Shown in pieces: positions 4,409 through 51,051 of a DNA stretch of 64,000 bases. The number at the start of each line of letters is the position of its first letter. The stretch's first letter is position 1. The position numbers and the translations under genes are program-made. The stretch is taken from IMG/VR virus record IMGVR_UViG_3300035670_010029. One strand, 5' to 3'. Below the pieces are notes generated by a model. The model was given only the letters and a program-made list of their open reading frames with translations. It was not told where the DNA came from and made no database searches. Source of the DNA: a virus.

Positions 4409-4419
4409 TTGTTTTACCT

Positions 4420-7400
4420 TTATTGTTTAGTTGGATCTGGAATACTACCTTCTGACTCCGCATTTAATCTACTGAATGCCGATTGTACTTCTCTTCTTAT
4501 TAAACCACTTAAAGGACCGTCCAATAATTCTTGCAGCGCTTGTGCTCCATTAACAACCACTTCTACCTTATGATTACCATTAACATTAATTTCTGGTGGT
4601 AAGTTTAGCTTGCTTAACTGAGTAATAAATTGATCAAATTTAGCTGTAAACTGGCCAAGACCATCTAATCCTCCAACACCATTTGCTTGTACTCCATTAT
4701 TTACACCGCCACCAGCCACGATCTGTTGCATAATAGCGCCAAACTGAGTCATAACCTGATTAACGCCTGTTAATAGGGTTCCAAAAATTGTTAATTGTTT
4801 ATTGACATTTCCAGCATTGCTAGGATCAAATGCTGCTTGTGCTGCCTGTGATACTCTCTGCTGTGTCTGAGGAGATATTTGTGGCATAGCCGCTTGTGCC
4901 GGAGCTTGTCTTTGAGCTGCCACAGGAGCCGCACCAGCAACCAATTGTCTCATAGCTACTTGAGGAGAAATGCCTTGTTCACGAGATATCTCTAGTGCTT
5001 TACCTCTTTGATTTGCTATTTCGCGTGCTTTGGCCTGAGGAGATTTTGCTAATCGCTCTTTTAATACTTCAGAGCCTCTTTCTTCGGAACGCGAACGTAT
5101 TGCGTCTTGTCTGGCTTGTTCAGCTTGTCTTTTTGCTGTCGCTGCTGCTATCCTCTCTGCTTTTATTTTCTCTCTTTCTGCTTTAAGTCTTTCGACTTTT
5201 TCTTCTTTGGTTTCTTTTGTGCCTTCAGACAAATACGAGACAGCACCACCTTTGTTATAGGCCCCACTATTAATCTTGTGTAACAGAGGAAGGTGTGACT
5301 GGGTAGCTTGTCGATTAACAACAAATTCACCAGGAGTAAGCATTGCGGGGATGGTGTCTGTACCTCTTGGTTGATACGGTACCAACATACCTTCGGATGC
5401 ATAAACTGTATCGGGTATGTCTCCTAATACTTGATCTGGTTTAGGTTTGGGCTTAGCTTTATTCTTTTTATCAAAACTGGCCAACCACTTACTACGCATG
5501 GAGTCATTCTTAGTGTTGTAGTAATTATACTCTCCAAGTTTACGTTGATAATAATTATATGCGCTCTTAAATTGCGACTCGATACCTTTTGCAGCAAAAA
5601 TAGCTCGTGTACTTCTATCTCCTTCTTCTATGGTTCTGAGAGGACTGCCATCTCGATTAACAATTGATGGCAAACCACTAGCATCATTAAAAGTGTCATT
5701 TGTCGTAGTTTCAGGTATTGTTGCTGGGCTAGACGATTCAGAACCAGGCCAGGGCATACCTCCTTGGTCGGAATCTACTCCTAAATATTGACGAGGTTTT
5801 CCTCCTTCGCTTAAATAATTAACCAATCCACCAAACGACTTATAACTACCTCTACCTAATCCAGCATTATTTCTTGCATTTTGAGCTAGTTTCTTTTGTT
5901 CTAGTGTTTGAGCATTTAATAGCAATTTTTTGTTTTTTTCAACACTGCCAGCAACAATAGAGCCTCCATCTCTTTCATCAAATGCAGTAAATCGTCCGCT
6001 TTCATTTTTTTCTACGAATTTATTGTCTTGGAAAGATAATGATTTTTCTTTGACATACAAAGCAGGAGTTTTGAACAGGTTTTTGATTGGTGGTTGTGGT
6101 GCGGATCCGTTCTTTATTAAATTGTTTAACCATTCTTTATATGTAAGCTCATCATAATAGTTTGGTAATTCACCATCAGCAATCGGAAGCTCTTCTGGAT
6201 TCATTACGGGAGGAGCGCCCATTGCTATTTTTTGCATAGCAGCATCATTATTTGCTTGTTCTGGCTTGTTTATTATTGGATTATCTGGACTTGGAGGATT
6301 AATATTGTCTGGTGTCTTCGATACTGGTTTGGTATTTTGATTAGCTAATTGAGTAGCGGCATATATTCCTCCCAAGGCTAAAGCTCCAACAATATATTTT
6401 TTTCTACCTCCTAATATATTTTTTGTTTTATTTCTAGTCCAATCGAACCAAGACCTATCCTCAAACTTTATACTAGGATCATCTATACCTTTGCTTAAGG
6501 CTCGTCTACCCTCTTTGGATAGCCCTTGTTCCGCATCTGCTAACGCTTTTGTTCTAGTTTGCTGCCAAACGGTGTCAGATTCCATATCTTTGGATATAAT
6601 ACCTTCAATAACGTCGTCATTGCGAGACACTTTCAAAGGAGGGCCTAAATCTACAGACCATCCTTGTTTCATAGCCTTGTCTGTAAACTCTTCTATGCCT
6701 GAGTCCTTATAAAGAATAGCTTTAAGAGCATCGCTATCAGACACACCACTACTAATAGCATCTTGATAAGCTTTTTGTGTAGCCGTATTGTTGCGAATAA
6801 AATTATCAATAGAGTCAATTCCAAATTCTAGTTCTTTTTCAACATTATCTATATAAGCATTGATCCTATTTGACTGAGCATCTTGTACCATAGCCTTAAA
6901 CTGATTTAACCTGTCTTCTACTAATAATCTCTGTGCTTTAGGTAGTTTAATAATATCACTATTATCAGATGCTTTAGTGGCCAGAGAAGCAGAATCGGTT
7001 ACATCATCAGCTTTATTGGGAACGGAGACGGTTTGTGTGGCAGTTTTTGTCCCAGCATTTCTGTTTGGTCTTAATTGTTTAATAGCGTCACCAAAAGATG
7101 GAGCATCTTCTAGAATTTTAGCTGTTTGAGGATTAACAGCAGCTTCAGCAAAAATATCCAAATTATCTATAACAAAACCGAGTTTATTCGCGCCCTCTCC
7201 CAAATTATTTAACCAACTTTTGAATGTTGGCATAGCTTCGCCAGCAGCAATAATAGTCTTAGCTATACTCGGGGTAATATTTGTCCCCAAAGAAGATATT
7301 CCTTTAACAACATTACCGATCAATGGCAGTTTTTGTGCGCCGCTAACCATTGATCCAACATCAGATAATCTATCTACAACGCTTAATGCTTGTGCTCCTT

Positions 7401-10400
7401 TACCAGCTAGACTTGTTCCTGTGCTAAAACCCATACTAGACAAGGCTTGCGCTGCTTGAGAAGCAACAAAACCTACTGTTTGAGCACCTTCGGTAATAGC
7501 AGCAGCGCTTTCTCCCATGCCCTGTCTTACAGACTCTACTCTAGCCGCATCCCCTACCTGAAGAGCGGTTTGTTCACCTGTCTGAATTGGTCCACTTCCA
7601 GCTAAGGCTTGACCTAACTCTACTGTACTATAAGCTCCTTGTACTAATGCTTGTTCGCCAACCTGAGCAAATGCTTGTCCTGCAGCTTGTCCTGATTCGC
7701 TACCAAGCAAATACGACCCTCCCTGTACAGCGCGACCAGCCACAGAGATACCAGCACCAGCTACCACATTAGCAGCCCCGTAAGCTGCTCTACCAGTAGC
7801 CTCTCCCACTCCTCCTAGCCATCCTAGTCCTGCTATTAGCGGATTTTTACTTTGTATCCATAATTTATTTTGTGCCGTTCCGCCATCTGCTAAGTAATTA
7901 ACAATACCGCCAGAAGACAAAGTGTTACTATTAATAGCTTTTAATAAAGGTAGATTTTTTTGAGTTGCTGATCTATTGACTACAAATTCTCCTGGCGTTA
8001 ACATAGCAGGAACAGTATCTGTCCCTCGTGGTTGAAAATTAACTAAGTTTGCTCCATTCTGAGCATATATTATTCCACCCATAGCCCTATTAACTGGTTC
8101 GGCCACTGCTCCTCTACTGGCAAACCATGATAAGCTAGGTAGCGCACCGAATGCATTAGCAAAACCAAAAAACATATGTGCTTGCATAGCATCGTCATAA
8201 TATTTTTGTCCATCATTAGCAAAAGACGCCGCAAAATTACTCATTCTGGCAGCGTTATCCGGTTGCGCCATAGCATCAAAGAAATAATCTTGACCCACCC
8301 AATTACCTTTGCCTCCATACCAATTCATGAGTCTATATAATCCTTCTCTGATGAAACCTAATGTTATTTGATCAAAATATGGCATACCATTAGGACCACG
8401 TAAATTAAACAAATCATCTCCAAATTTTTGTATTAATCCTGATCTAACTTTTGTTCCATTAAATTCATTATATGGATTAAATAATACCTTTACTAAATCA
8501 TTAACCGTAGCATTTTCTGGAATGGCACCCGCTAGGTTTGTTGGTGTTAGTGTGCCATCTCTACCAACTACTTTAATTTGGGTTCCTTGCAATTGGTTGC
8601 CTAATATATTTTTCCAATCAGGACTTAATTGTAAACCAGCTACTTTGCCGGCTCTTGCTGACATGCCAAAACTACGAAAGACTCCAGCAATCGGCGCTTT
8701 AGCATCATAGAATTGTTTTAATAAAGCGGTGTCTCCTCCAGCAATAGCACCAAAAGCGTTAGCAGCACCGCTGATCATAGTCATAATATTATCTAGAGCA
8801 TTATATGATTGGATACTATTTGCTCTGTTTTGCAATTGAGAAACATACGTTCCGGCTTGATTCAAAATAGAGGACATATATTGAGAGGCTCCTTTAGGAT
8901 TACCTCCTAAAGCTAACCTAATAGCCTGCGGAGCGCCAGCATTAGACAACCATCCAGCAGAGACACCGGGAAGTCTTAATCCTCCAAATAAAGCCATAGA
9001 ACCCCTAATTAGAGCTGCTGTAGCCTGTGGCAGATCCGCATCGGTTAATACAGAACCTTTGGTTATTTTAGACTGATCCACCTTACCAGCAGATAGTGAC
9101 ATTTCTTGTTGAAACTGTGCTAGCTTATCTAGTACAAACTCGCCTATATTCACAGATAATGGCTGCTGGCTTATATCGGTAAATACATCTGCACCTGATG
9201 AGATACTACCTAAATATTTAGTTAAAGACGTACCCTGACCAAACGTTAGATTAAGTTGTGATGCTACTTTAGCTGCTTGTTGTTCAGCGTTGGGGTCTTT
9301 ATTAACTCTCATCTTTATTAGGTCTTGGAAATCCTGAAGTAGTTTTGGATCATTAATACTAGAAGCATTAATAATATCATTAGGTCCATATTGTTTGGCA
9401 GTAAACAGTCTTCTTTGGGACTTGTCTAGTGTGTTAAACAGCGTGCCCACTATGTTATTTGGTAATAGGGTGTCTATTGTTCTATTTGGATCAAATTTAC
9501 CAGTAGTCGCATCATAAAATTGACCCGTATATTTCTCATATGCTATAGGAACATCTATGGAAGGATTTTTGCCATTAATGGGTATTGGTAATGTTAATTT
9601 AATGTTGTCAGATATTAGGCTGCTAGATACCACGCCCTTGGCATTCAGAGTATTTTTTTTCGCCTCGTCCATAAACGTTTGACCAAGATAATCTTCTATG
9701 TTGCCATTGATCATAACTGGAAATGACTTAGAAATACGATTTATTTCATCTGTTAATACGAATGGCTTACCTAAATTAAATTCTGGATCAAATTTTGCCG
9801 GTGGGGCTCCTACCAATCCAAACTTAACTCTATCTCTTCTTGCTCTTTCTATATTAGCTTGTACCGACTCTATAGCTGTTCTAAACGACGGTTCTAATGA
9901 TGGTTGAGCCACAACAGCACTACTCGCGCCTTGAGTAATAAGCTCGTCTAGTGGAGACAATTCAGAGCCAGTTAAAGAAATATATTGTTGTGTATTATTA
10001 AATAATGCAGATAGCTTGTCTCCTAGTGCTTGACCAGATCCGTCATCCACGTAACCCAACCTGCCTTGTAAAAATTCTAGTGTGTTTTTATATAGCTCAT
10101 AGTTTGGTTTATGATTTTTTGTATTAGCTTCGTCTATTTTAAATCCTGGTAAAATATGCTGCTGTTTCGTCATTGGCTCACTTACAAAAGACGGGGTTTG
10201 TCCATTGTGTGGTTCCCAGCTTTCCGAACTCCATTCTGTGTCAGCATATGGACTACCAGTAACAAAAGACGGTTTGTTAACGGACACCGCCATTGCCATT
10301 CCAGGAGCCCAGCCGGCCGGATTGTAAAATGCTCTTTTATAATACCAAACTTTAAAAGCTTGACTTTTTTGTATTTGATCGGAGCTGGCCCCTATATAGG

Positions 10401-13400
10401 GTTTATCAAAAGACACCCCATAACTTTTATCTACTAATGTAGATTCCCACTTATTGGGAGTAGGATCTGGAAAATCTGCTGTGGTTGGTGGTTTATCTCT
10501 ATATAAAGATTTATCTAGTATGCTTTCTGGTTTTGGTCCGCCATCTATACCAAGTAGCATAGTTTTAACTTTGTCTTGATATTCTTTTTCTTGGGCTTGA
10601 AAAATTTGTTTACCGGTAAACGCACCAAGCCCTAAATACAAACTATTGTTATCTTTAACTTTTGCTAAACCACCACGAATCCTAGACGAAGCTTGTGCTG
10701 CAGCGTCGTTCTTTGCGTAATCATACTGATCCCTGCCTTGCTTCACTATTGTTGGCGTTGCGCCAACTCTCACCGAACCCATTGACTTGTCTATAATATT
10801 ATCAGCATTTAGATCAAAAGAGGATGTAGGCAGTGCATTAGAAGCACCAAAAGATAATGTGTAACTATTTGGCAGATCATATATATTACTAGAACCTTTT
10901 TGCCATATTTCTGCTGCAGAGTCTGTTGGTTCAATAATTGGTTTTTCAGTCAACATGCCTTGTTGTTTGATATTGTCTGGCTTTCCCCAGTTTGTGATTA
11001 ATCCTCCAGCGTTATAATATCCGACACGGCCACCCGATTGTAAGCTGTTATTATTAATTTGTTGTAGTAATGGCAGGTGTTTTTGTGTCGCTGATCGATT
11101 AATAACAAACTCGCCAGGAGTTAACATCGCCGGTACGGTATCTGTTCCTCTGGGCTGAAAGTTAACCAACTGACCCTCCGCAGCATAAACTAAACCTCCA
11201 GTAGCTATGCCGGCAACTGGTGGTACCGCTCCAGCTCCTCCTACTGGTGGTTTTGGTTGTTGAGCAATAGATACGAGGGTATTGATGTTTCGTCCAATAT
11301 CGGATAGCTCTCTATTTTGAAATGTTAAAATAGTATTGGTCAAACCATCTATAATAGCTTTGCTGTTTTTGGACGCAATATCGTTTGCCAAATTCTGATC
11401 AAGCTGTCCTAGTAATCTAGTAGCCGCTGATTGTTCCGCTATGGCCTGATTATAATATTGTATAGCTGCGGCAGTCGCTGGATCTTGTTCGGGATTTCTT
11501 AACGAGTTTAAAATTTGTTGAAACATCGGAGAGACCCCCATCCCCGACTCTTGTAGCATAGTTTCTAATACGTTAGCTCTTGTATTGTTGGCTTGTTGAT
11601 TATCTCCTAAAAATGGCAAAATATCCTGTAGTGCTCCTAATGTGTCTTTTCGCTCATTAGCAAAAGCTGTTTGTGCTGCTCTCATTGCTTCCATTGCAGA
11701 AGCACCATTATTAATTGCATCTTGATAAGCTTTTTGGGCTCCAATACTATTTTGTATAGTATTTTGTTGTCCATTCATATTTCTTTGTAGTCTATACAAA
11801 GATTGGTTTAAAGACTCTAGTTCATCGGGAGTGCTAGTAACTACTTTCTCTAAGAAACTTATTCTGCCAGTTGCTTTTTGTTGAGCTTCTTGCATAGCAT
11901 TCATAGCAGCACTAGCTTTTTCAGTATTATTAGCCATCTCTTCTAAAGCTGCTCTGTTTTCTCTTAGAGAAATATTAGTGGCTTTAAGATCATTGTTAAA
12001 TCTAACAAAATCTTGAACACCAGCTGGGCCTTTCTCTGCCGACTGCTGAACAGACGACTGTTGAATTTCTCTGGTTCTATTGAGTTTAAGGACGGCATTG
12101 AAAATATCCGCTGGATCCGTGATTCCTCCTGTTTGTCTACCAACAGAAGCATTTCTTTTAGCAAAAACATCTGCTACAGATATTGTTCGATTTAATGTTT
12201 TTGATAACTCTAACTGAGAGTCGGCCGTAATGTCTATAGACTTTCTGGATCGTTCTCTAGCACTAATTTCTAAATCAATAATTTTATTCAAGTTATTAGC
12301 ATACTGATTAAGAATATTTTGATAATTTTGTAAGGCTTTGATAGCCACAGACTGAGCATCTTTAGCTGTCTCTATAACAGAATTTAATCCAGCCAATTTT
12401 TCTGATAATTGAGCAAAATCCACTTTATCATCGCCGGATTTTCTCAGATCTACCAATGTACTACCGACTTCTTTAGCTAGTTTATCTGCTAATTCTGGAG
12501 GCAAGCCTAAACCCTTAAGCTCAGCTCTTATGTTTTTATCAACGGCCCTAGCAATAACTTCGTTGGAAGAATCTGGTCCTTGGTTTTTTAGTGTATCATT
12601 AATTGTAGACATAACTGTATTTTCTACAGTCTCGCCTAAATTCATTAGTTGTTGCATCTCTGGCTGTCTATTACCAAACAATGATCCGGCTGAGGATTGA
12701 GCTGCTGATACTCGTCCTGCTCCGTATGATCTTGGATTTTCAATAATATTCGCAGATGCTAGATCTATATTTCCTACTTTTGCCTGGCCCTGCAAAGCCG
12801 CTGTTGTTAGATCTATATTTTCTGACATAGACTTAAGAGAGAATGCTGTTGCATTAATGGCCTGTTCCATATTAGTAAACATTCTTTTTAAAGAACGCGT
12901 ATATACAGAAACCATAGCTCCTAAGTTTTTCTGATCTTTTTCTCTCTGAGCAACAGCTGCTGCTTGCCTGGTCTTATTAGCTCCCTCTATAGTAATTATT
13001 TCTTCTATTAGCTCTTTTTTTCTCTTCTCAGTTAAACCAGTACTGAGTTCTATCTGTCTTATTTGCTTATTAAGAGCCGTGTCTGCATAAACCAAAGATC
13101 TGGCAAAATCATCAAATTCTGCACTGCCTAAAATATCTCCTACGTTTTCTCCAGATTTAATACGAGCTTGGATTAGCTGATTAATACCTTCTGCTATTGG
13201 TTGAAAAGATTGACTAGATTCTTGTGCTTGAGCACCGACCATTTTACCAGCTTTAGCCTCGTATGTGTCCGCTCCGCCAAACAATGTACGAAAATATTCT
13301 ATTGTTCCTTCTTTTTCTAAAACCTGAGATCTTACTGCTGCTTGACGAGAAGCCCCATTGCCTTGTATCGAAGAAAATAGAACATCCAATCCATTAATCC

Positions 13401-16400
13401 AACCAGCACTAGCGGTATCTAGAGTTCGTGTTCTAAGATTATCTGCTGATCTAGAGGCATCAATTAAATTTGACTGTATTGACTGTCTTAGATTGACTTG
13501 TGTCAAGTCTTGATTCAGCTTATCGAATTTTTCTGATATACCATTTAAAGCTTGTTCTATTTTATTTTTGGATAATTCTATATAAAATTGTCTCACTCCG
13601 TTATAAGCATCAAGAGCAACTTGCCCCAAAATAGCAACCACCTGCACTGCCTTAGCGCCTCTCAATAATCTGGATGCAAAGCCTGCAAATCTACTATTTG
13701 TGTTGCGTAGGTTTTGTGTGAAATTATCTAGTTCACCGATAGCTGCTTGGGTATATGAAAAAGCTTGCGAACCTCCTCTAATACCACCAGAGATACCTGC
13801 TTCAATAGCACTAGATTTAGCATTAATAGAATCGGCGATAATATTTCCAACGGTGATGACACCAAAAGATAGGGCTAAACTAGCCTGTCTATCAAAATTT
13901 CTCTGCTCATCTGGACCTCTTTCTCCTCTAGAAGCAGCCGCTTGTTCTATAGCTGTTCTGCGAGCCCTAATTTCTTCGTTTATGGCTCTAACTTGCTCTT
14001 GTGCTTGGTCTTGTGTAATTCTTCCGGCTCTTAATTCGGCATCAATAGTAGCTCTGCGTGTCTGGATATATCTTTGGTCCATTTGCTCTAGTGTTCGCGC
14101 ATCTCTAGTAAGATTTTGTAATACTCGTGCTAGGTCATCTCCGGTAGCATTTAACGTACTAAGATCTATAGAGGTTCCTAATCCACCTCCCGTGGCTATG
14201 TCTTCATATGCAGTACGACTTCGTACTGCGGCTCCTGCTCTTAATTCTGCTTGTACTTCTTCTTCTGTTCTGGGCGATCCGCTAGTTCCTGGAGTAGTAC
14301 GTAAAACATTTTCTTCTGCTTGTCTAAGAGCTTCTATTCTACCTTCTACAGCATCTAATGCGTCTTGAATAGCTTGTCCAGTAATATTTCCTAATCTTTG
14401 TTGTATATCTAATTCTGCTTGTGCTGCTCTATTAGCGTTATTTATGGCTTGTTGTAGGTCATACAATGTTTCCGCACTTGCTCCAGCCGCACGAGCCATG
14501 TTAAAATCAGCTTCTGCAGCTCTTCTAGCTTCGGCAGCAGTGGCCTGATAGCTTCGATTTAATAATCTGGCAGATTCTGATCCACTGACACCTAGTTGTG
14601 TTAATACGTCTGCTAGTTGAGTTAATGCTGTGGTAGCTAAAGTAGTAGCTCCTATAGTGTCTGCATTAATAACTTCTGGTCTAGCTGATGGCCCTCTGGA
14701 TCTACCGCCCAAAAAGAATCTTTCTACTCCAACAGCTCCGCCCCTATTTAAACCCAAAGCTTTTGTCGCTTTTTCTCTTATTACAAAACTACCAACTGGC
14801 AAATTAGCTGGTATACTATCACTGGTACCTGTACCCGGACCCTTAAATACGCTAATACCGCCATCAGCAAATCGCCCCATACCATTACGATCAGCCTGAT
14901 TCATTTTATTTAATTTGCCATAACCAATTCTTTTAGCAAGCTTGGGTGGTACATAAGCTTCACCATTGCTTACTAGAGCCGGAACCGTGCCTCCGTCTGC
15001 TAATCCTATAGCTTGTTCTTTGTAGTATCTATCAAATTCTCCACGGGCTTTTTCAAACGCACTCCCATTAAGTGTTCTTTTAATTTCTGTAGGAATATTA
15101 TCTGGTAAGCCAAAGAATTGGGCAGCTCGTCCCAATCCTCCTGGAAAATCTATAGCCCTATTAGACTCTAAAGTTTCTATAGGAGGAAGATTAGCTCCTA
15201 AAATAGCTAAAGCTTTTTCAATAACGGCACCCTCAATATTTCCTTGTCCCATCAGCTCATCTAATTCTGGTTTGGCTTGCGGCTCAGTATATAAGAAGCC
15301 AGACTTTTTGCTTTTTTGAACAGCTCGTATATTATCTAAGCTATCATCAATTAATTTTTCTGTTTGTGCTAAATTTTGTGCTTTAGCTCTTGGTACTTTA
15401 ACGCCTTCTCCTCCAACACCAGTAATGTCCGAGGCTTGGTAAGGTAATCCAAAGCTTTGTAAAGATTGAGCTAATAAGTCTACAGTACTAGCGGGTCTAG
15501 CGGTAAGTATTCGTGTGTTTTTAATAAACTCTGGATCAGCATCTATTAATGTTTTAAGTTTAGCACCCAAACGTGTAAGTCTACCCCCTTTTAGATATTC
15601 TTCAACAACGGTTCTGTCTGAATATCTGGGAATGTCTGGCTTTCCTTCTTCGTTAAGAATATCGGTACCAGAAACTAAAGTTTCATCAAAATCAAAAACT
15701 AATTTTTCTTTACCTCCAAAAATTTTGGTATATTGTACATTTTCTGCAAAGTTTCTAGCAGCTAGTGCTGTTTCTCTGCTCATTTGTTGTGCGGCTGGTA
15801 GGTATTCTTTGTCAAAACCTTTTATAGTGGCATAGATAGTTTTACTACTTTCTGGCAGGACCCATTCGTTGGTGTCACTGTAACCCATTGGCAATAAGCC
15901 GGCTATTGCTACTTGTGTTAGACTAGCTATTCTTTTAGCTTCAGCCGCATCACTCTTGCCCGATACGAATAATGCTCTATTGACATAGTCTTTAGCTATT
16001 TCTATCCCTTTATTTGCTTTAATATTATTAGCATTTAAAACAGATCGTGTTCGACTATCTCCGGCACCAATACCTAATATGGTTCGAACTCCGGCAGGTC
16101 CACCCAAACCCCTTAGTTGTTCTAGCAATGTTTCTTGAATACTTTGACCTTTGGTTTGAGCCAAAGCAGACACCCTGTCTCTGATTCTTGGTGCCTCTTT
16201 AACAGCTCCTGCTTCCGCAAATTTTTGAATCATACCGCCTAAAGAAAATCTTGGTTTGCCCTTTCGTTTTTTAATATCTTTTGCCCATTCGTACATCGAA
16301 CCAAAACTATCGCCTTCTATGTCCTCAACAGCATCTTCGCTTAGATACTTGTCCATGTATGCTTTAGTCAATACCATACCATCAATAACCGTAGGCTTAC

Positions 16401-19400
16401 CATCTTTGGTATAGCCCATGTTCGAACCACCAGCGTCGATCCAATGTAATCCTCGTTCAGCTAATTTACCCTGCAATAGCTCTGCATCTTTCATGCCTTT
16501 TTCTGTATCAGAGATTCTTACTTTGTCTTGTATTGCGGCTGTTAATTTACCAAAAGTCTTAACTTTTCTATATCCAGAAACATGCTCCATCCCTTCGGGA
16601 AGCTGATAATTACCAATCTCTTTAATTTGTTTTTTACGGAAGCCTACATCCTCAGCTATTTGCTGTATTCCAAATCCCGTGCGAGAAATTTTTAACACTT
16701 CGTTACCTATATCAAAAGACACATTTTCTCCACCGGCTCCCAGTACTTTTGCTGACGAAACACCATATTCATTTTCTATTTGGGAAAGATACTTAGGTAA
16801 TCCTTTAACGGCTAAAATTTCTGGCGTCACTTCTCCAAAAAAAGTTTTATTCGTAGTAGAATATGTCTGTAATGCTGCTAATAATTTAGAGACTGAAGAA
16901 ACCTTGTCTGTGGATTTTTTAGCTTTTCCACCCACTTTATATTCCTGTCTTTTTATACCAGTACTACCCAATAATTCACTAAGCGTACTGTCTAAAACAC
17001 TTTGTAGTTTACTATCAAGAACAGGAGCTTTTTGCACTAAAGTTGTTAAAAACTCTTCTTTTCCATTATCTTCTGTTCTGGTTATATGAGCTTGTTCGAA
17101 ACCAGCCGATAATAATGTTTGATTCACACCGGGATTGATCGGTCTGTATTCTCTGGCTTTTTTAGCATCATCAGAAGCCTTGATATATGAAGCTAGTTCT
17201 TTTTCCATTTCTGGATTGCGCTTTTCTGGATTATCTCTTAGTCTAATGTTTTGTAGCTGAGCACTTTCCAAAAGACTTTGTTTATATTTGCGTCCATACA
17301 CCACGTCTGCACTAGTATATCCTCCGCCATTACCAGAAGATAAAGCATCAAAAGCATCTGCCAAACCATCATTGTCCGTATTGAATAGAAAATCAACTCT
17401 TTCCCTATATTTGGAAAAACTTTCTGCTGAACGAGCCCTTAAACCACTAAACAATTGGTGTGTTAATTCGTGATACAATACGTCTTGTCCTGGTTTATCA
17501 AAAGCTGTACCTAACGATATACTGCCTCGTCCGGTAGCTGACATTGTTTGCTTCTTAGACTCAACTGCGGCTTCTATTGCTCTGCGTTCTTTTCCTTTGA
17601 TATCCGAAATTTTCTTTTGTAAAGTTTTTATTTCATCAAAAACGCTGACAAAAGCTTCTCTGTCGTATGAAAAAGACCCATCATCAAAAGTTTCAATAGG
17701 GGTTTTTAGAATTTTATTTTGTAATTTCTTTTTTTCTTCTACCAACTTCTCATAACCAAATAAGTCTTGTTTATCTTTGTCTGTGTATCCAAAAACGCTT
17801 AGGTCCCAACCTTCAGAGCCACGACTACCTAACGGAGAATCATTAAATAGTCCTCCTCCTATCACTTTTCTACCTATACTACCAGCGTTACCAAAATCTA
17901 TCTGTGCCGGCAATGCAACGCTCAAATCTTCTTGTGGCAAACCTATAAATTTGGCAAAATCGCCTATACTTTTTAATAAAGAATCTCGTTTAACCTTACC
18001 TTTAAAAGAAGCCAAAAACGCCGCACGATCAAAAGGCTCAGTCATTCTGGACCCAACAGCTTGGTCGTCTATAGATATGCGTTCATCTGTAGGGACATTA
18101 CTTGCTAGTTGTTTCCATTCGGCTGCTTGTTGTTCTTTTATTATTTGTTTAGCATACGCATTGGTTATGCGGCGTGGAAATTTTGTTTCTCCTGTGCCGA
18201 AAGATTCCTGTGTTTGTTTAACTCCACCAGGTGATCCTGTCATAAATTTTTGAATGAATCCACCAACAAATTTTTCGTTAACTACCTGTTGTTCTGGATT
18301 CTGTGTTCTTTTCTTTTGCAAGAAGTTGAGGACTTCGTCAAAAGACCCACTATAAATGACCTCAGATGCCCCTTTGTCTCCGTGCTCAAACACATCATAC
18401 CATGTTCGTTTAGCATTAGCGCTGTCATAAAATGATTTGTTTTCAGCCCATGTATATTGTGATTTGCCGCCTTCAGCAAAAGCTTTAATTTGACCACCTT
18501 TGATAAAACCTGGTGTTTTCTGTTGTTGTTGCTTATTAATAAAATCATAAAACTGTTTTTTGGTATCGCCAGCCCAGTAATAGTCCAGGGTTCCTATATT
18601 AACGTCGTCGATTTTAGGCGCAGGAAGGTTTTCTTTAAAATATCTATTAACGCTTTTTTTCTCTATACGATATCTTAATAATTTGCTAATCAAATCAGCA
18701 TCATCTGTTTTTGTAGTTCTAAATTTGACTTCACCTATTCTGCTTATAGCATTGTTCTTAAGTCGTTTAAGTATATCAACAGGATAGTTGGTTTTATCGC
18801 TGGCTTTCTCCCATTGGCCAGACAGTTTTTCTATGAGCAATTGTTCATATGCTAAACCCCAACGACCTTCTGCACTTTGTAAACGACTAATAGAATCTGA
18901 TGTTTGTTGTCCATAAGATTGTTTAATTTGTTTTTGTTCTGATCGATTTTTACCAGATAGCTCTCTCAATATATCTCGGTTCTTTTGACTAATATCTATA
19001 CCGGCATAGCTCTTATAGTGTCCTGAACCTTGTGCTGCTTGATTTTCTGCTGTATTCCATATTTTTAGAAAATCTTGATCCTCTAATTTAACTGTTTTCG
19101 GTTTTATTTTGATAGAGACTTTATCGTCTGCTTCTAAATTGGTTGAACCTATGGCTTTAGCAATAGCTGCTGCGCCTGATCTGTTTAATAGATCGGAGAC
19201 TAATACAGGTCCTCCGTCAGCATATCTGTTCATCCTAACCAAATTTCCCCTACCATACTTATTAACAGCTCGTTTATTGACGACAAATTCTCCAGGAGTC
19301 AACATAGCTGGTACACTGTCTGCGTTACCAGATCCTGGTACTATTCCTCCTCTGGCAAATCCGTATATACGACCTCCGTCTTGTGCTCTTCTAGTTCCTC

Positions 19401-20931
19401 TAAAACCCCCACCAAAACCACCAGCAAATTGTGTTAAAGCACTAACCCCCCTAAAAGCTGCCATAATACCGATTAAAGGTAAAACACCTTTGGTAGCATC
19501 AGCAATTTTGATTAGAGCGCTTGCAAGATCAAGACCCAATCTAACCATTGTTTTAAAGCCATCACTATCACCTACGCTTCTCACTAAAGCTGTAAATTCT
19601 TCTCTAACTTTTTGTATTTGAACAGCTAACGCTAGTTGACCTTTGGCCGCGTCTGTAGCTAATGATCCTTGTCCTTGTTGAGCTACCTTAAGAGCATCTT
19701 GAGCAGTGGCGAATTGTTGGATAAGAGGAAGTACTTTACCAATCTGACGGAAACCACCAAGCTCTTCAACTATTTGAGAGAACTTTAAGTCTCTAGGATC
19801 CAATCTGCCTAATCCTTCGGCCAATCTTTGAACAGCAACATAAGGCCCAACGAATTTACCCTCTAGATCAGTTAATTGAACACCATACTCTTTAAGAGCT
19901 TCTATAGTGTCGCCTCTTTGTATTCTGGTAAATATTGTTCTCAAACCAGTAGCAATAGTTTCTGCACTTTCGCGAGTAGTAGCTCTAATACTAGTAAACA
20001 CAGCCAAAAATTCGTTTAAGGCATCGGTGCCTGAACTAACTCCTCTACTAGCAGAAGCAAACACGCCACCAGTACGCTGTATAGCAGCAATAAGGTCGCT
20101 AGCTTCTACTGCAAACCCAGCCGCTACAGCATTGATACTACCTAAAGCCCCTTCTAGTTGATTGGCACTAATACCAAACTGTCTCATCAAAGCAATAGAA
20201 CCTTCTACTGTTTGATTAAGATTATCAAAAGATGGAGCTAATGCACTTTTAGCTAAGGCTTCTAGTGCTTTTCTGGTATCTCCCGCAGTAAAACCTGCCT
20301 GAGCTAGCGTTACCGATACTTGAGCCAAATCTTCTGACGCAACACCCATAGATGTAGATAATCTGGTAATCTCAGATGTCATACTACTCAAACTGGCTTT
20401 GCTTTCATTTGTTACCTGACTCAAACGAGTAATCTGACGATCAAATTCTATATATTGTTTTATACCGGCACTTAACGCATTACTAAATCCGTATATAACA
20501 GATGTCACAGCACTAAAGGCCGCAAATCTTCTTACGGCTAACCCAGCTTGTCTTCCGAAGTCTTCAAACTCGGTACGCGTTCTTGATACGGCCGCACTAG
20601 CGTTATTAGCACTAGAAGCCAACCTTACCATGGGAGCTTGTACTGTTTGCGGTAAATTAACATTACCAACCGATCTCATCGCAGCTGCCAAATTAGTAAA
20701 AGCTTGCGCTGCGGAGGTTGTTGACGATGTGGTTGCAGCTAGCGTGGTATTAAGAGTCCCAAGACTAGTATTAACTTGTCTGATTGATCCTAAAGTTGTT
20801 CTATTTATATTCAGATTAACATTAGCATTAATAGAACCAAGTTGTCTACGAATATTATTTACTATGGGACGAATATTGGTCGGCCCCCTAAGATTAATTT
20901 CTGCGGTTAAGCTGAATCCTCTTGCTGCCAT
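4420..20931 (-). CDS. Tape measure protein (TP901-like N-terminal core), 5503 aa, with embedded enzyme-like cargo domains
   Basis: The Ala/Gln/Leu-rich helical N-terminus has typical TMP motifs (LAQAGF, AAGFAVEASDL, ETIATGLRTIFTRI, LGGFRQIGK). The gene lies after the tube and chaperone genes, carries repeated DxVPAMLTPGEFV motifs, and has an AGGAG Shine-Dalgarno sequence. Confidence 0.93.
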   Translation of the reverse strand: MAARGFSLTAEINLRGPTNIRPIVNNIRRQLGSINANVNLNINRTTLGSIRQVNTSLGTLNTTLAATTSSTTSAAQAFTNLAAAMRSVGNVNLPQTVQAPMVRLASSANNASAAVSRTRTEFEDFGRQAGLAVRRFAAFSAVTSVIYGFSNALSAGIKQYIEFDRQITRLSQVTNESKASLSSMTSEITRLSTSMGVASEDLAQVSVTLAQAGFTAGDTRKALEALAKSALAPSFDNLNQTVEGSIALMRQFGISANQLEGALGSINAVAAGFAVEASDLIAAIQRTGGVFASASRGVSSGTDALNEFLAVFTSIRATTRESAETIATGLRTIFTRIQRGDTIEALKEYGVQLTDLEGKFVGPYVAVQRLAEGLGRLDPRDLKFSQIVEELGGFRQIGKVLPLIQQFATAQDALKVAQQGQGSLATDAAKGQLALAVQIQKVREEFTALVRSVGDSDGFKTMVRLGLDLASALIKIADATKGVLPLIGIMAAFRGVSALTQFAGGFGGGFRGTRRAQDGGRIYGFARGGIVPGSGNADSVPAMLTPGEFVVNKRAVNKYGRGNLVRMNRYADGGPVLVSDLLNRSGAAAIAKAIGSTNLEADDKVSIKIKPKTVKLEDQDFLKIWNTAENQAAQGSGHYKSYAGIDISQKNRDILRELSGKNRSEQKQIKQSYGQQTSDSISRLQSAEGRWGLAYEQLLIEKLSGQWEKASDKTNYPVDILKRLKNNAISRIGEVKFRTTKTDDADLISKLLRYRIEKKSVNRYFKENLPAPKIDDVNIGTLDYYWAGDTKKQFYDFINKQQQQKTPGFIKGGQIKAFAEGGKSQYTWAENKSFYDSANAKRTWYDVFEHGDKGASEVIYSGSFDEVLNFLQKKRTQNPEQQVVNEKFVGGFIQKFMTGSPGGVKQTQESFGTGETKFPRRITNAYAKQIIKEQQAAEWKQLASNVPTDERISIDDQAVGSRMTEPFDRAAFLASFKGKVKRDSLLKSIGDFAKFIGLPQEDLSVALPAQIDFGNAGSIGRKVIGGGLFNDSPLGSRGSEGWDLSVFGYTDKDKQDLFGYEKLVEEKKKLQNKILKTPIETFDDGSFSYDREAFVSVFDEIKTLQKKISDIKGKERRAIEAAVESKKQTMSATGRGSISLGTAFDKPGQDVLYHELTHQLFSGLRARSAESFSKYRERVDFLFNTDNDGLADAFDALSSGNGGGYTSADVVYGRKYKQSLLESAQLQNIRLRDNPEKRNPEMEKELASYIKASDDAKKAREYRPINPGVNQTLLSAGFEQAHITRTEDNGKEEFLTTLVQKAPVLDSKLQSVLDSTLSELLGSTGIKRQEYKVGGKAKKSTDKVSSVSKLLAALQTYSTTNKTFFGEVTPEILAVKGLPKYLSQIENEYGVSSAKVLGAGGENVSFDIGNEVLKISRTGFGIQQIAEDVGFRKKQIKEIGNYQLPEGMEHVSGYRKVKTFGKLTAAIQDKVRISDTEKGMKDAELLQGKLAERGLHWIDAGGSNMGYTKDGKPTVIDGMVLTKAYMDKYLSEDAVEDIEGDSFGSMYEWAKDIKKRKGKPRFSLGGMIQKFAEAGAVKEAPRIRDRVSALAQTKGQSIQETLLEQLRGLGGPAGVRTILGIGAGDSRTRSVLNANNIKANKGIEIAKDYVNRALFVSGKSDAAEAKRIASLTQVAIAGLLPMGYSDTNEWVLPESSKTIYATIKGFDKEYLPAAQQMSRETALAARNFAENVQYTKIFGGKEKLVFDFDETLVSGTDILNEEGKPDIPRYSDRTVVEEYLKGGRLTRLGAKLKTLIDADPEFIKNTRILTARPASTVDLLAQSLQSFGLPYQASDITGVGGEGVKVPRAKAQNLAQTEKLIDDSLDNIRAVQKSKKSGFLYTEPQAKPELDELMGQGNIEGAVIEKALAILGANLPPIETLESNRAIDFPGGLGRAAQFFGLPDNIPTEIKRTLNGSAFEKARGEFDRYYKEQAIGLADGGTVPALVSNGEAYVPPKLAKRIGYGKLNKMNQADRNGMGRFADGGISVFKGPGTGTSDSIPANLPVGSFVIREKATKALGLNRGGAVGVERFFLGGRSRGPSARPEVINADTIGATTLATTALTQLADVLTQLGVSGSESARLLNRSYQATAAEARRAAEADFNMARAAGASAETLYDLQQAINNANRAAQAELDIQQRLGNITGQAIQDALDAVEGRIEALRQAEENVLRTTPGTSGSPRTEEEVQAELRAGAAVRSRTAYEDIATGGGLGTSIDLSTLNATGDDLARVLQNLTRDARTLEQMDQRYIQTRRATIDAELRAGRITQDQAQEQVRAINEEIRARRTAIEQAAASRGERGPDEQRNFDRQASLALSFGVITVGNIIADSINAKSSAIEAGISGGIRGGSQAFSYTQAAIGELDNFTQNLRNTNSRFAGFASRLLRGAKAVQVVAILGQVALDAYNGVRQFYIELSKNKIEQALNGISEKFDKLNQDLTQVNLRQSIQSNLIDASRSADNLRTRTLDTASAGWINGLDVLFSSIQGNGASRQAAVRSQVLEKEGTIEYFRTLFGGADTYEAKAGKMVGAQAQESSQSFQPIAEGINQLIQARIKSGENVGDILGSAEFDDFARSLVYADTALNKQIRQIELSTGLTEKRKKELIEEIITIEGANKTRQAAAVAQREKDQKNLGAMVSVYTRSLKRMFTNMEQAINATAFSLKSMSENIDLTTAALQGQAKVGNIDLASANIIENPRSYGAGRVSAAQSSAGSLFGNRQPEMQQLMNLGETVENTVMSTINDTLKNQGPDSSNEVIARAVDKNIRAELKGLGLPPELADKLAKEVGSTLVDLRKSGDDKVDFAQLSEKLAGLNSVIETAKDAQSVAIKALQNYQNILNQYANNLNKIIDLEISARERSRKSIDITADSQLELSKTLNRTISVADVFAKRNASVGRQTGGITDPADIFNAVLKLNRTREIQQSSVQQSAEKGPAGVQDFVRFNNDLKATNISLRENRAALEEMANNTEKASAAMNAMQEAQQKATGRISFLEKVVTSTPDELESLNQSLYRLQRNMNGQQNTIQNSIGAQKAYQDAINNGASAMEAMRAAQTAFANERKDTLGALQDILPFLGDNQQANNTRANVLETMLQESGMGVSPMFQQILNSLRNPEQDPATAAAIQYYNQAIAEQSAATRLLGQLDQNLANDIASKNSKAIIDGLTNTILTFQNRELSDIGRNINTLVSIAQQPKPPVGGAGAVPPVAGIATGGLVYAAEGQLVNFQPRGTDTVPAMLTPGEFVINRSATQKHLPLLQQINNNSLQSGGRVGYYNAGGLITNWGKPDNIKQQGMLTEKPIIEPTDSAAEIWQKGSSNIYDLPNSYTLSFGASNALPTSSFDLNADNIIDKSMGSVRVGATPTIVKQGRDQYDYAKNDAAAQASSRIRGGLAKVKDNNSLYLGLGAFTGKQIFQAQEKEYQDKVKTMLLGIDGGPKPESILDKSLYRDKPPTTADFPDPTPNKWESTLVDKSYGVSFDKPYIGASSDQIQKSQAFKVWYYKRAFYNPAGWAPGMAMAVSVNKPSFVTGSPYADTEWSSESWEPHNGQTPSFVSEPMTKQQHILPGFKIDEANTKNHKPNYELYKNTLEFLQGRLGYVDDGSGQALGDKLSALFNNTQQYISLTGSELSPLDELITQGASSAVVAQPSLEPSFRTAIESVQANIERARRDRVKFGLVGAPPAKFDPEFNLGKPFVLTDEINRISKSFPVMINGNIEDYLGQTFMDEAKKNTLNAKGVVSSSLISDNIKLTLPIPINGKNPSIDVPIAYEKYTGQFYDATTGKFDPNRTIDTLLPNNIVGTLFNTLDKSQRRLFTAKQYGPNDIINASSINDPKLLQDFQDLIKMRVNKDPNAEQQAAKVASQLNLTFGQGTSLTKYLGSISSGADVFTDISQQPLSVNIGEFVLDKLAQFQQEMSLSAGKVDQSKITKGSVLTDADLPQATAALIRGSMALFGGLRLPGVSAGWLSNAGAPQAIRLALGGNPKGASQYMSSILNQAGTYVSQLQNRANSIQSYNALDNIMTMISGAANAFGAIAGGDTALLKQFYDAKAPIAGVFRSFGMSARAGKVAGLQLSPDWKNILGNQLQGTQIKVVGRDGTLTPTNLAGAIPENATVNDLVKVLFNPYNEFNGTKVRSGLIQKFGDDLFNLRGPNGMPYFDQITLGFIREGLYRLMNWYGGKGNWVGQDYFFDAMAQPDNAARMSNFAASFANDGQKYYDDAMQAHMFFGFANAFGALPSLSWFASRGAVAEPVNRAMGGIIYAQNGANLVNFQPRGTDTVPAMLTPGEFVVNRSATQKNLPLLKAINSNTLSSGGIVNYLADGGTAQNKLWIQSKNPLIAGLGWLGGVGEATGRAAYGAANVVAGAGISVAGRAVQGGSYLLGSESGQAAGQAFAQVGEQALVQGAYSTVELGQALAGSGPIQTGEQTALQVGDAARVESVRQGMGESAAAITEGAQTVGFVASQAAQALSSMGFSTGTSLAGKGAQALSVVDRLSDVGSMVSGAQKLPLIGNVVKGISSLGTNITPSIAKTIIAAGEAMPTFKSWLNNLGEGANKLGFVIDNLDIFAEAAVNPQTAKILEDAPSFGDAIKQLRPNRNAGTKTATQTVSVPNKADDVTDSASLATKASDNSDIIKLPKAQRLLVEDRLNQFKAMVQDAQSNRINAYIDNVEKELEFGIDSIDNFIRNNTATQKAYQDAISSGVSDSDALKAILYKDSGIEEFTDKAMKQGWSVDLGPPLKVSRNDDVIEGIISKDMESDTVWQQTRTKALADAEQGLSKEGRRALSKGIDDPSIKFEDRSWFDWTRNKTKNILGGRKKYIVGALALGGIYAATQLANQNTKPVSKTPDNINPPSPDNPIINKPEQANNDAAMQKIAMGAPPVMNPEELPIADGELPNYYDELTYKEWLNNLIKNGSAPQPPIKNLFKTPALYVKEKSLSFQDNKFVEKNESGRFTAFDERDGGSIVAGSVEKNKKLLLNAQTLEQKKLAQNARNNAGLGRGSYKSFGGLVNYLSEGGKPRQYLGVDSDQGGMPWPGSESSSPATIPETTTNDTFNDASGLPSIVNRDGSPLRTIEEGDRSTRAIFAAKGIESQFKSAYNYYQRKLGEYNYYNTKNDSMRSKWLASFDKKNKAKPKPKPDQVLGDIPDTVYASEGMLVPYQPRGTDTIPAMLTPGEFVVNRQATQSHLPLLHKINSGAYNKGGAVSYLSEGTKETKEEKVERLKAEREKIKAERIAAATAKRQAEQARQDAIRSRSEERGSEVLKERLAKSPQAKAREIANQRGKALEISREQGISPQVAMRQLVAGAAPVAAQRQAPAQAAMPQISPQTQQRVSQAAQAAFDPSNAGNVNKQLTIFGTLLTGVNQVMTQFGAIMQQIVAGGGVNNGVQANGVGGLDGLGQFTAKFDQFITQLSKLNLPPEINVNGNHKVEVVVNGAQALQELLDGPLSGLIRREVQSAFSRLNAESEGSIPDPTKQ
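5270..5375 (-). repeat. TMP internal module QPRGTDTIPAMLTPGEFVVNR..T..HLPLL (copy 5)
   Basis: Protein-level repeat, close to the copies at 7935-8040 and 11055-11160. Confidence 0.9.
7935..8040 (-). repeat. TMP internal module QPRGTDTVPAMLTPGEFVVNRSATQKNLPLL (copy 4)
   Basis: Protein-level repeat. Confidence 0.9.
11055..11160 (-). repeat. TMP internal module QPRGTDTVPAMLTPGEFVINRSATQKHLPLL (copy 3)
   Basis: Protein-level repeat. Confidence 0.9.
14760..14995 (-). repeat. TMP internal module, two divergent copies (VPALVSNGEAYV and GPGTGTSDSIPANLPVGSFVI) (copy 2)
   Basis: Same motif spacing as the other copies, but more diverged. Confidence 0.75.
15020..15250 (-). other. Second PD-(D/E)xK-like domain within the TMP
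   Basis: GAVIEKAL, then RAIDFP, then PTEIKRT, in the same E / D / ExK order. Confidence 0.5.
15290..15710 (-). other. HAD-superfamily phosphatase domain within the TMP
   Basis: All four HAD motifs occur in order: LVFDFDETLV (I), ILTAR (II), K of KAQNL (III) and LIDDSLDNI (IV). Confidence 0.85.
16250..16930 (-). other. Protein-kinase-like domain within the TMP
   Basis: Gly-loop VLGAGGENVSF, beta3 lysine VLKI, catalytic-loop-like WIDAGGSNMG (DxxxxN) and DFG-equivalent VIDG. Confidence 0.75.
16940..18230 (-). other. Zincin-like metallopeptidase domain within the TMP
   Basis: VLYHELTHQLF (HExxH at 17458-17472) plus a downstream KEEFLT helix that could supply the third ligand. Confidence 0.75.
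18540..18880 (-). other. PD-(D/E)xK nuclease-like domain within the TMP
   Basis: WGLAYEQLL helix, then NYPVDIL, then IGEVKF. Confidence 0.65.
19265..19345 (-). repeat. TMP internal module PGSGNADSVPAMLTPGEFVVNKRA (copy 1)
   Basis: Protein-level repeat at the end of the N-terminal helical core. Confidence 0.9.
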
Positions 20932-35440: not shown

Positions 35441-38400
35441 TTATATCATAGCAACTTGAATAATATCAAAACCTGTGTCATCTGACACTTTAACATATAT
35501 GTGTTCATAAGCACCCCAATTTATAGCGTTATTTCCTCGTAATTGCACAACCAATTGATCGTTAACAGCATCATAACTATCTTTAAGCGTTTCGGTAACC
35601 GATGATCTGGTGAAGCCGCAATAATTAAAGTTTTCGCCGTCTACAGAGATTGATACATCCGGAGTATAGTTCTGAACCGGTCTTGATCCTCCTTCTATGC
35701 GGAATGTTAAAATCCAGCTAGAACCCATTCCTGTTTTGTTGATACTGCTTGGTAATACTGAAATAGGTTTATTTACATAAAGAGGATAATTAACAAAATA
35801 GCGCTTAGGAACTATATCACCGCCGTTAAAAATAGGCATGTTCATATTTTCCATAGTGCATATCTTATATATGTAATCTTTGTACAGTACGTTTGATCGT
35901 CCTGTTATCTGGAACACATACCTACCCTCAGTATTTGATGTTATATTATCGGGCATAATTTTAATATTGTCATCGAAATTTTGCATTAGAGTAACAGGAC
36001 TATTCCAATTCAAACTATTAATCCACCCACTATCCGAAACATTATTATTTGTGACATATAGTGTAGAATTATCTCCTGAAGTAACCGTCAGTGATCCTGC
36101 TTTATCAAGTAAATACAAACTAGTAGAAATATGATTATTTTGGTCTATAGATACTACATCACCAGTAGACAAAGGTAGTCCATTATGTTTAATAACCAAA
36201 GAATTATTTTCTGGTATATATCCTGTAACACGTGGGCTTAAATCAATTAAATATTTGCCGTTGAAGTTTTGTATGCCTGCACTTAAAGGTACATCTAAAA
36301 TAGTGGCACTAGTAATGTTAGAGGTGTTGACTTCTAAGTCTATGTAATATGGAGGAGTAATTAAAGTATCACCAAAAGAAGAACGATACAACTGCAATTT
36401 AATATTATATCCTGTTTCTATGCTATTACTAGGTATAGTTAAACGAGCTATATTATTTTGATAAGTAAAATCTCCGCTCATAATGGGTTTATCGAAAGTT
36501 TTTTGTATAATACCAGAAATCAAAGGCTTATAATTTCTCGATAACCAAGGAGAACCTATTTCTGTAACATATCCTCCTACGGCTAAACCAAACACCGGAG
36601 TCATCACTGTGCCATTTGGGTCTTCGTCACTAGTATCATTAATAACCGATATGTATCCAGGGTCTAATAGAGGATAAACAGGAGGAAATGATGTTTGTCT
36701 CGGAGTGGTAACCAGGTTGTCCCCCTTGTGTACCCATACATAAGTATTTCTAGCAGAGGGTAGTGCATTGTAGCTATAGGTGGGGAATCTGTCTCCTTGA
36801 TGACTAATAAACACCCCATATACTGTACCAGAAGCAGAGTTTAAAACAGGGGTATCGAAACTAGAAAAAGAAGAAACAGAACCGTTAACGAGGGTGGTAT
36901 TCGAAATAAGATCTTTAATAGAATATTGAAGCGAACGCCCTCTTCTCTGGTTCTCTATCAGAAGTTTCTGTGCTTCATTGTCACCAAATACTAACTTCGT
37001 GGCTAAAGCATAAACTTGTCCATTGAAAGAGAATGGGGCAAAATCTTGAGCTGGTGGAGGGTCAGGTATTTCCACGTTGATTGGCGGAATTATAATACCA
37101 CTAATTCTAACATAACCAGTTTCCCAGCAATTAAACCATTTCATAGTAGAATAATTATCAATATCTCCATTGAGATCAACCAAATTCAGTCCTGTTAAAA
37201 ACACATCATTACTGGCAAAAATATTCATACCAGTTAAAGAACCGCTTATGGATGGAATCAATAATCCGCCCAAACCTAATGGACTATCGCCTCCAGTCTT
37301 TGTGGGATCCCTAACAAGAGAACCACCACCCAACAAACATTTACTAGCACTGGTATCCAGCGTAGAATCACCAAAGAAATTATCAAAATTCCTAATGTTA
37401 ACAGATTTAGAAATACCTCTTACTAACCGACCACTACCAGAACTTGGAATAATATTAACTCCTGGATTAATAAAAAATTGATTATTTTCTGTAAAGACAT
37501 TATATGTTGAATTTAAGGGATGGCCTGGATTATCATTAAATTCAATATATATTTGAGTATTATTAGCTATAGTTGACTGTCCGAGCGGAATTAATCTAAT
37601 ATTAGTATTGGTTGTTGTAGTACCGCTATAAGAAACATATTCTATTGCACATTTATTATGAGGTAATACACTATTACATACTAGGTCATATGCTGCCGGT
37701 GCTGGTCTGTATGCTGTCACAGTATCTGCGTCCACTGGAGCAAGTCCTGTTTTTGGACTTAGTACTGGTTTATACGAATCAAAATATATAGGGAAACTAA
37801 TATTAGGATCATTGGGGCTAGAAGAATCTGAGAATTTTATTACCCTATTAGCCTTAAGATTCCTAGCATCTGTTACAGTTAATCCAAATTCTTCTGGGTA
37901 TTGTCCACCATTTGCGAATGTCGTAGGAAAGCCCTCTATAATCAGATAGCCACTACCAAGATTTGAGTACGGAGGTTCTGGATTAGGATTGTCCCCTAAG
38001 CCAGGAAAAAATACAGAATATGACAAACCAGGAGGAAGAGTGCCGCTTACATCTATCGTTCTAATTCCTGTAGCAATACCGCACAAGGGAGCTTGTCCAG
38101 GTCCGAATAATAGCTTTTGTTGATATTTTTCGCCACAAAAAGGTTTAATAACGGTTTGTGCTGGATAATTAGGATCATCAATAATTTGAGGTGGATTACT
38201 ACCAACAATTAATTCGTTATAAACAAAGAAGTACTCTACTGTATCGCTGTCTGGCAAATATGGGTTTTGTAAAGTAGGATTGGTGTCTATCGCTGTAATA
38301 GTAAAATCCTTTCTTCCCAACAAAGTACAAGAAGGTACACCAGAAAAAACGTATGACCAAGATCCACCCATGTCATCAGCATTCCATTTTGGCGCTTGAG

Positions 38401-50068: not shown

Positions 50069-50114
50069 AATTTAGTCCTTTTTTACAAATAAATAGATCA
50101 TTACGACATAACAA

Positions 50115-51020: not shown

Positions 51021-51051
51021 ATTATTGCATTACCTTTGTTGTGTAGCGTCG

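Follow-up and report, generated by a model that had tools for sequence, protein, structure and literature searches.

A tape measure protein (TMP) of 5,503 amino acids (aa), here called P0001, is encoded in the 64,000-nucleotide viral stretch of IMG/VR record IMGVR_UViG_3300035670_010029 (hereafter the window), and carries between its N-terminal core and a downstream core a block of discrete, conserved, enzyme-like modules rather than helical or disordered filler. Across 107 giant homologs these modules are gained, lost, reordered and horizontally exchanged between TMP backbones. We lean toward the reading that the TMP doubles as a scaffold on which enzymes are arranged as modules and would be carried ready-made into the host, the delivery step being one that we infer from the kinds of enzyme present and from the behavior of other TMPs.

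A TP901-type tape measure protein with an internal module block

The gene for P0001 occupies positions 4420-20931 of the window as a single uninterrupted open reading frame (ORF); this and every other feature located below are on the minus strand. By family matches its predicted product is a TP901-type TMP of an uncultured large phage: in Pfam, PF10145 (PhageMin_Tail, phage minor tail or TP901 tape measure) matched residues 187-391 with 87.3 bits (cut-off 33.2), and residues 26-510 were covered by 13 TMP PHROGs. The N-terminal TMP core (aa 1-514; 19390-20931), which contains the PF10145 match, is kept in ~98 of the 107 homologs. It is followed by a first GG linker and a "VPAMLTPGEFV" mini-domain (aa 519-574; 19210-19377), to which PHROG 35029 and TMP PHROGs match, and the module block is closed by linkers and a second, PGEFV-like mini-domain (aa 1976-2077; 14701-15006) kept in ~90 of the 107 homologs. 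The sequence of residues 514-2077 (window coordinates 19390 and 14700) is unlike that of an ordinary TMP. Past residue 2077 the protein becomes richer in helix-forming residues and aromatics are scarce; by this crude measure of composition it fits the second helical region that had been proposed there.

Modules are exchanged between divergent backbones

A homolog search with residues 560-2080 of P0001 as query yielded 107 proteins of 3,100-7,700 aa, nearly all with PF10145, on metagenomic contigs of at most ~250 kb from several sources. BLAST coverage of these homologs along P0001 was stepwise. The TMP core (residues 1-560) was covered in ~98 of the 107 and the downstream core (residues 2450-3300) in ~87; between them, module M1 (residues 600-800) was covered in 28-43, M2 (900-1340) in ~53, M3 (1350-1550) in 6-8, the HAD region (1600-1900) in 58-75, and M4b with its mini-domain (1900-2050) in ~92. 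The original prediction, which was made from the letters of the window and likened the block to a delivery cassette, had anticipated that cargo would vary among related TMPs and that the helical cores would be kept, and this is the pattern seen across the 107 homologs.

Searches with hidden Markov models of the modules showed that their order varies, with M2 either before or after M4, depending on the homolog, and M3 located at residue ~800 or at residue ~1700. Identities along single pairs of proteins were equally uneven. The homolog P0002 is 89% identical to P0001 in M3 and 93% in M4, compared with 61.6% in the N-terminal core and 35% in the downstream core, and P0003 is 90% identical in M2, compared with 59% in the core and 46% in M4. 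Taken together, these results show that modules are gained, lost, reordered and horizontally exchanged across TMP backbones. P0002 further contains, between M3 and M4 (aa ~1321-1472), an ADP-ribosyltransferase domain (PF03496; 26.5 bits, cut-off 23.4) for which there is no counterpart in P0001; PF03496 was also matched above the 23.4-bit cut-off in P0011 (36.3 bits), with weaker, sub-threshold matches in P0003 and P0009.

PF03496-type cargo, which is again of the conflict type, occurs even in the closest relative of P0001. The variable regions of homologous TMPs also gave a weak match to PF16581 (cytidylyltransferase-related).

In homologs at 23-60% identity the motif residues of the modules are invariant or nearly so, which indicates that the motifs are more than chance. 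No stand-alone forms of the modules were found in the searches made. All of the motifs that had been listed for the block are in place in P0001: AYEQ at residue 694, YPVD at 716, GEVK at 733, HELTH at 1154, KEEF at 1291, LGAGGE at 1397, EVLK at 1411, DAGGSN at 1499, VIDG at 1515, DFDET at 1747, LTARP at 1809, IDDS at 1861, IEKAL at 1904, AIDF at 1926 and TEIK at 1948. The list of five units drawn from these motifs was nevertheless too short, since two more units, M1b (residues 823-899) and M4N (~1585-1738), are present. With respect to the five, the HAD domain has both an enzyme fold and conserved motifs, and the other four have conserved motifs.

A HAD phosphatase inserted into a conserved bracket

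The HAD-superfamily phosphatase domain (aa 1739-1883; 15283-15717) carries a complete set of motifs, D1747-x-D1749-x-T1751, T1810, K1850 and D1862-D1863. Among 65 homologs, D1747, D1749, T1751 and D1863 are invariant, and T1810, K1850 and D1862 are at least 90% conserved. The domain adopts the Rossmannoid HAD fold, so that the phosphatase fold is confirmed and the activity predicted; the closest fold appears to be that of the 3'-phosphatase of T4 polynucleotide kinase (Pnkp; PDB 5uj0 and 1ltq). The complete HAD phosphatase of the original prediction thus stands on fold as well as on motif conservation. The domain falls into no curated HAD family, with no Pfam match at E≤1 on residues 500-2100 and none in the PDB profile search.

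Upstream of the HAD domain, M4N (aa 1571-1738; 15718-16221) consists of a linker and a helical and three-stranded bracket domain modeled with a predicted local distance difference test score (pLDDT) of >90; its well-folded, conserved part covers ~1585-1738, and it was matched in 86 of the 107 homologs. Of the 107, 72 contain the HAD core and a further 19 have M4b without it. In 13 of these 19 HAD-less homologs, M4N and M4b lie next to each other, 3-15 residues apart, which indicates that the HAD domain is a clean insertion into a conserved bracket formed by M4N and M4b. Both M4N and M2 are confidently folded, yet the searches run gave no convincing structural relative for either; in the fold searches with the M3-M4 model, the matches listed were filled by HAD proteins, M3 and M4N being barely probed and M4b not reached.

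A probable minimal kinase-like module

M3 (aa 1336-1570; 16222-16926) is probably a minimal protein-kinase-like domain, with a glycine loop at 1398-1401, K1414, D1499, N1504 and D1517. Across 13 sequences that range from 28 to 97% identity, no substitution is seen at the glycine-loop Gly, K1414, a Gln, D1499, N1504 or D1517. The module is rare, with 16 matches at E≤0.001 in 1.84 billion representatives. In the model (pLDDT 60-86), three strands are followed by helices, a strand leading into the D..N loop, two strands and then the DG; the glycine loop lies between the first two strands and the Lys in the third. This order of strands agrees with a kinase N-lobe, catalytic loop and DFG equivalent, and the module ends ~50 residues past the DFG equivalent, leaving no C-lobe. 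In the published description of polyvalent-protein kinases (PMC5512222), the C-terminal subdomain is missing, strand 2 is preceded by a Glu and the N-lobe closes with a conserved Gln, and M3 shows the same traits, with GGE-N carrying Glu in most members and an invariant Gln.

The M3 profile gave nothing significant against PDB sequences. Among its sub-threshold PDB profile matches, however, 14 of 19 were kinases aligned in the correct regions (APH(2''), YopO, PKC, KSR2 and NleH/OspG-type minimal effector kinases). Foldseek gave weak matches to Rio2 (probability 0.66), a Bacillus phage Anath kinase (0.57) and a Marseillevirus kinase (0.69). The nearest Pfam-bearing clusters by protein-language-model features were Kinase-PolyVal (0.91) and T7 kinase, and the Pfam profile of Kinase-PolyVal (PF18762) did not match M3 at E≤1. 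The earlier call of a kinase-like domain is therefore best described as probable: the catalytic residues hold down to 28% identity, and the fold and profile matches are weak but concordant. Distant M3 matches to proteins with BamE-type repeats (P0113, P0114, P0116, P0119 and P0120) were dismissed as spurious.

Two E-D-ExK units and an HExxH module

M1 (aa 575-822; 18466-19209) and M4b (aa 1890-1975; 15007-15264) both show the PD-(D/E)xK motif order E...(P)D...(D/E)xK, and their conserved motifs suggest that they are nuclease-like. The core of M1 is E696 / P717-x-D719 / E734-x-K736. P717, D719 and E734 are invariant in both of the alignments made (10 and 13 sequences, 27-70% identity). E696 and K736 never vary among the 10 sequences and are near-invariant among the 13, in which a single homolog has Arg for K736 and an added fragment stops short of the E696 column. 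Combined multi-module alignments put M1 fragments onto M2, and the alignment used for modeling (A11) had three correctly aligned M1 homologs; M1 folded poorly because three homologs at most were correctly aligned in the combined alignment. The M4b unit is E1905 / D1928 / (E/D)1949-x-K1951-R1952. In 30 homologs D1928, K1951 and R1952 are invariant, E1905 is at least 90% conserved and position 1949 is E or D; the unit was modeled confidently, with the Glu in a helix and the ExK in a strand. No Pfam or PDB sequence match was found for M1, its trimmed core included, and the trimmed core of M4b gave nothing significant in the PDB sequence search. Compared with each other by hhalign, M1 and M4b pair weakly at their E and D motifs (probability 12%), and paralogy is not claimed. 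The proposal of two PD-(D/E)xK-like domains thus holds for the conserved motifs, and a nuclease fold with its alpha-beta-beta-beta-alpha-beta core is putative for either unit. Between M1 and M2 lies the small module M1b (18235-18465), with linkers at 812 and 890 and low pLDDT, which is present in ~3-8 homologs.

M2 (aa 900-1335; 16927-18234) contains the HExxH residues H1154, E1155 and H1158, all invariant in 52 homologs. It folds confidently, with the HExxH on a helix and a strand just before it. We infer a candidate third zinc ligand in the invariant EDxGKEEF helix (1287-1294), 135 residues downstream of the HExxH. No convincing zincin or other fold was returned for the M1-M2 model by Foldseek against the PDB, VIA wide, VIA on the Foldseek list or the ESM Atlas, the matches being helical-hairpin noise, and M2 had nothing at ≥0.9 in the protein-language-model Atlas. 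In the search made, M2 was seen only inside giant TMPs. By its motif, M2 is probably a zinc hydrolase of unmatched fold; the metallopeptidase that had been proposed here retains its invariant motif and lacks a convincing fold or family match.

Glycine-rich linkers at module borders

The modules are parted by a glycine-flanked motif of the GGxIQKFxxGG type. The strict pattern occurs seven times in P0001 (residues 519, 812, 890, 1565, 3300, 4341 and 5034), compared with 0.44 expected from shuffles. Among the homologs, a linker lies within 30 residues of the border at 41 of 52 M2 starts and 7 of 7 M3 ends, compared with 14 of 240 random positions, a test that is partly circular in that the module profiles take in linker residues. 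GG linkers were found in all homologs, including those without M2. The glycine-rich linkers may serve both as flexible joints and as recombination boundaries, and cleavage at them is possible but unsupported. M2 was considered as a linker protease; linkers are equally frequent in M2-less homologs, and we leave this role as speculation.

Proposed role and alternative explanations

TMPs are known to occupy the tail tube in a metastable state, from which infection expels them. On the delivery reading, the P0001 chain would be extended or metastable in the tail tube, like the TMPs of T5 and P23-45, and would be expelled at infection ahead of the DNA; its modules would then refold in the periplasm or cytoplasm and could act before any phage gene is expressed. 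The HAD phosphatase and the nuclease-like units would likely target nucleic-acid ends or nucleotides, and the kinase, together with the ADP-ribosyltransferase of relatives, would likely target host proteins. Because these enzyme types (Pnkp-like phosphatase, kinase-like, nuclease-like and, in relatives, ADP-ribosyltransferases) point to the cytoplasm, takeover, anti-defence or damage repair would be likelier than wall digestion. In a broader and distinctly more tentative form, the TMP family might constitute a general, recombination-programmable injection scaffold, in which a conserved ruler bears GG-delimited cassettes (kinase, Pnkp-like phosphatase, nuclease-like, zinc hydrolase and ADP-ribosyltransferase) that are traded between distant phages and released within the host before expression, possibly via HExxH cleavage at linkers, so as to disarm defence or repair nucleic-acid damage.

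The reading of the modules as cargo cassettes is supported by the data above, and several observations weigh against it. The homologs were picked by similarity to the module region itself, so that the module frequencies are biased. Pfam searches of the whole of P0001, run in four pieces, gave nothing at E≤1 in residues 500-5503, PF10145 being the sole match, and the profiles of four modules gave nothing significant against PDB sequences. The M1 model has a pLDDT of <60, and for three of the five domains the assignment comes from conserved motifs, the fold being unconfirmed. Nearly all members of the family have M4N and M4b, which look like scaffold rather than cargo; M4b, present in 91 of the 107 homologs, behaves in this way rather than as variable cargo. 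M2, without a convincing structural relative or stand-alone homologs, would also suit a TMP-specific structural or processing role.

Such a role is the core of an alternative in which the modules work in cis, in tail assembly or envelope penetration, the HExxH module being, like T5 pb2C, a peptidase that is muralytic or serves in processing, with the others anchoring, trimming or remodeling the TMP or the envelope. Muralytic and metallopeptidase domains are the established type of TMP-borne enzyme (T5, and the P23-45 TMP has one too), and the confinement of M2 to giant TMPs in the search made, the near-universality of M4N and M4b and the occurrence of glycine-rich linkers in every homolog all agree with it. 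We nevertheless regard a cis role as unlikely. A Pnkp-like HAD phosphatase, a protein-kinase-like domain and ADP-ribosyltransferases have cytoplasmic rather than envelope substrates; the modules are optional and swapped between divergent backbones, unlike an essential assembly function; and homologs that lack M2 still have the linkers.

Two further explanations would deprive the modules of an enzymatic role or the protein of its unity. If the modules were inert relics or spacers that add length or bulk or plug the tube, with motifs kept for folding only, the absence of a family-level sequence match for every module would be expected, and the tail of P23-45 does scale in length with its whole TMP, enzyme part included (800 nm for 5,002 aa). 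However, it is exactly the catalytic residues that are invariant (HAD motifs I-IV, kinase K/D/N/D, E-D-ExK and HExxH) while their surroundings fall to 23-35% identity, and neither a kinase catalytic loop nor the full set of HAD active-site residues would be needed in a spacer, which makes this explanation quite improbable. The length of the frame (16.5 kb) and its metagenomic origin led us also to consider that separate genes had been fused by an error of assembly or gene calling, for which no supporting points were found. The frame is uninterrupted, 107 independent homologs (3,100-7,700 aa) from several sources have the same core-cargo-core layout, and the modules had no stand-alone forms in the searches made, so that such a fusion is scarcely credible.

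Relation to known systems

The closest precedent for delivery of an enzyme by a TMP is gp96 of the Thermus phage P23-45, a 5,002-aa TMP fused to a virion RNA polymerase, which is active and transcribes the pre-early genes (Chaban et al., 10.1101/2022.12.01.518664). It resembles P0001 as a TMP of ~5,000 aa with a non-muralytic enzyme that acts on cytoplasmic substrates after infection, and is a direct precedent for TMP enzyme delivery. In contrast to P0001, gp96 has one enzyme, an N-terminal RNA polymerase, and lacks a linker-bounded array; no exchange of cassettes has been reported for it, the two proteins showed no sequence relation, and the P0001 enzymes are of other kinds (phosphatase, kinase-like, nuclease-like and HExxH). 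The T5 TMP, pb2, is metastable in the tube, is expelled upon receptor binding and is cleaved, its enzymatic part passing to the periplasm, probably after refolding (Linares et al., 10.1101/2022.09.20.507954). The likeness would lie in an enzymatic domain that is parted from the ruler and freed into the host envelope, as in T5. However, pb2 carries a single C-terminal muralytic metallopeptidase (pb2C), whereas the enzymes of P0001 are mostly of types with cytoplasmic substrates.

Polyvalent proteins, which are very large, virion-associated and found in phages and conjugative elements, combine kinases lacking the C-lobe, zincin-like peptidases, ADP-ribosyltransferases and nucleases in variable architectures, with a presumed role in the first minutes of invasion (Iyer et al. 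2017, PMC5512222). The P0001 family shares with them the combination of several unrelated catalytic domains in one giant protein of variable architecture. It differs in its anchor, which is a TMP core, in its own GG-type linker and in its repeated PGEFV mini-domains, and tape measure proteins have no occurrence in the paper on polyvalent proteins. None of the curated PolyVal and LPD Pfam models matched P0001 at E≤1; weak leads to polyvalent domains were LPD34 by shape (TM 0.28) and LPD23 by language-model features (0.84). A literature search found no paper on multi-enzyme, cassette-exchanging TMPs, and the P23-45 RNA polymerase was the only non-muralytic TMP-borne enzyme in the literature searched. 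The view that a many-enzyme cassette in a TMP is unusual therefore holds against that literature, but such cassettes are common inside this metagenomic TMP family.

Other features of the protein and the window

The PGEFV mini-domain is a unit of ~60 residues around "(S/T)D(S/T)VPAMLTPGEFV.." with GG linkers at its flanks, and has five copies in P0001. In addition to the two that bound the module block, these are at aa 3245-3312 (10996-11199), 4285-4351 (7879-8079) and 5176-5237 (5221-5406). Outside the TMP core, it is the sole part that matches TMPs of other phages, and cyanophage S-SM2 matches there only; the repeated short "VPAMLTPGEFV" motif likewise accounts for all PHROG matches past residue 500. 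No DNA relative of the window was found among GenBank phages, and by protein the PGEFV motif alone was matched. P0001 contains two more long stretches poor in helix formers, aa ~3320-4250 (8182-10974) and aa ~4400-5150 (5482-7734), which are common to ~2-31 of the 107 homologs, mostly fewer than 10, and have no Pfam or PHROG family match. They may be further cargo.

Some of the same-strand neighbors of the TMP gene are tail-fibre-like and virion structural genes, and the directly adjoining genes on both sides are without a family match. A second giant ORF of 4,553 aa (35441-49102) matches only Ig-like (He_PIG) and cadherin-like domains and is presumably a fibre or adhesin. A 793-aa protein (26712-29093) has FN3, Mtd_N (major tropism determinant N-terminal) and YHYH domains and, by this domain content, is tail-fibre-like or receptor-binding-like. 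Guanine-cytosine content is 0.45-0.47 at ~50000-54000 of the window, compared with 0.32-0.41 elsewhere in the window; the ORFs in this region match "virion structural protein" PHROGs.

Implications

TMPs are the textbook length rulers and channel formers of phage tails. If the delivery reading is true, more than 100 giant TMPs with exchangeable cassettes would take the idea of the polyvalent protein to the tail lumen, and would represent a second route, besides the capsid, for bringing pre-made proteins into the host. This raises the physical question of how folded domains of 20-50 kDa are stored in, and threaded through, the tail tube. The modules would also supply testable candidates for early anti-defence and host-takeover enzymes in abundant uncultured aquatic phages.

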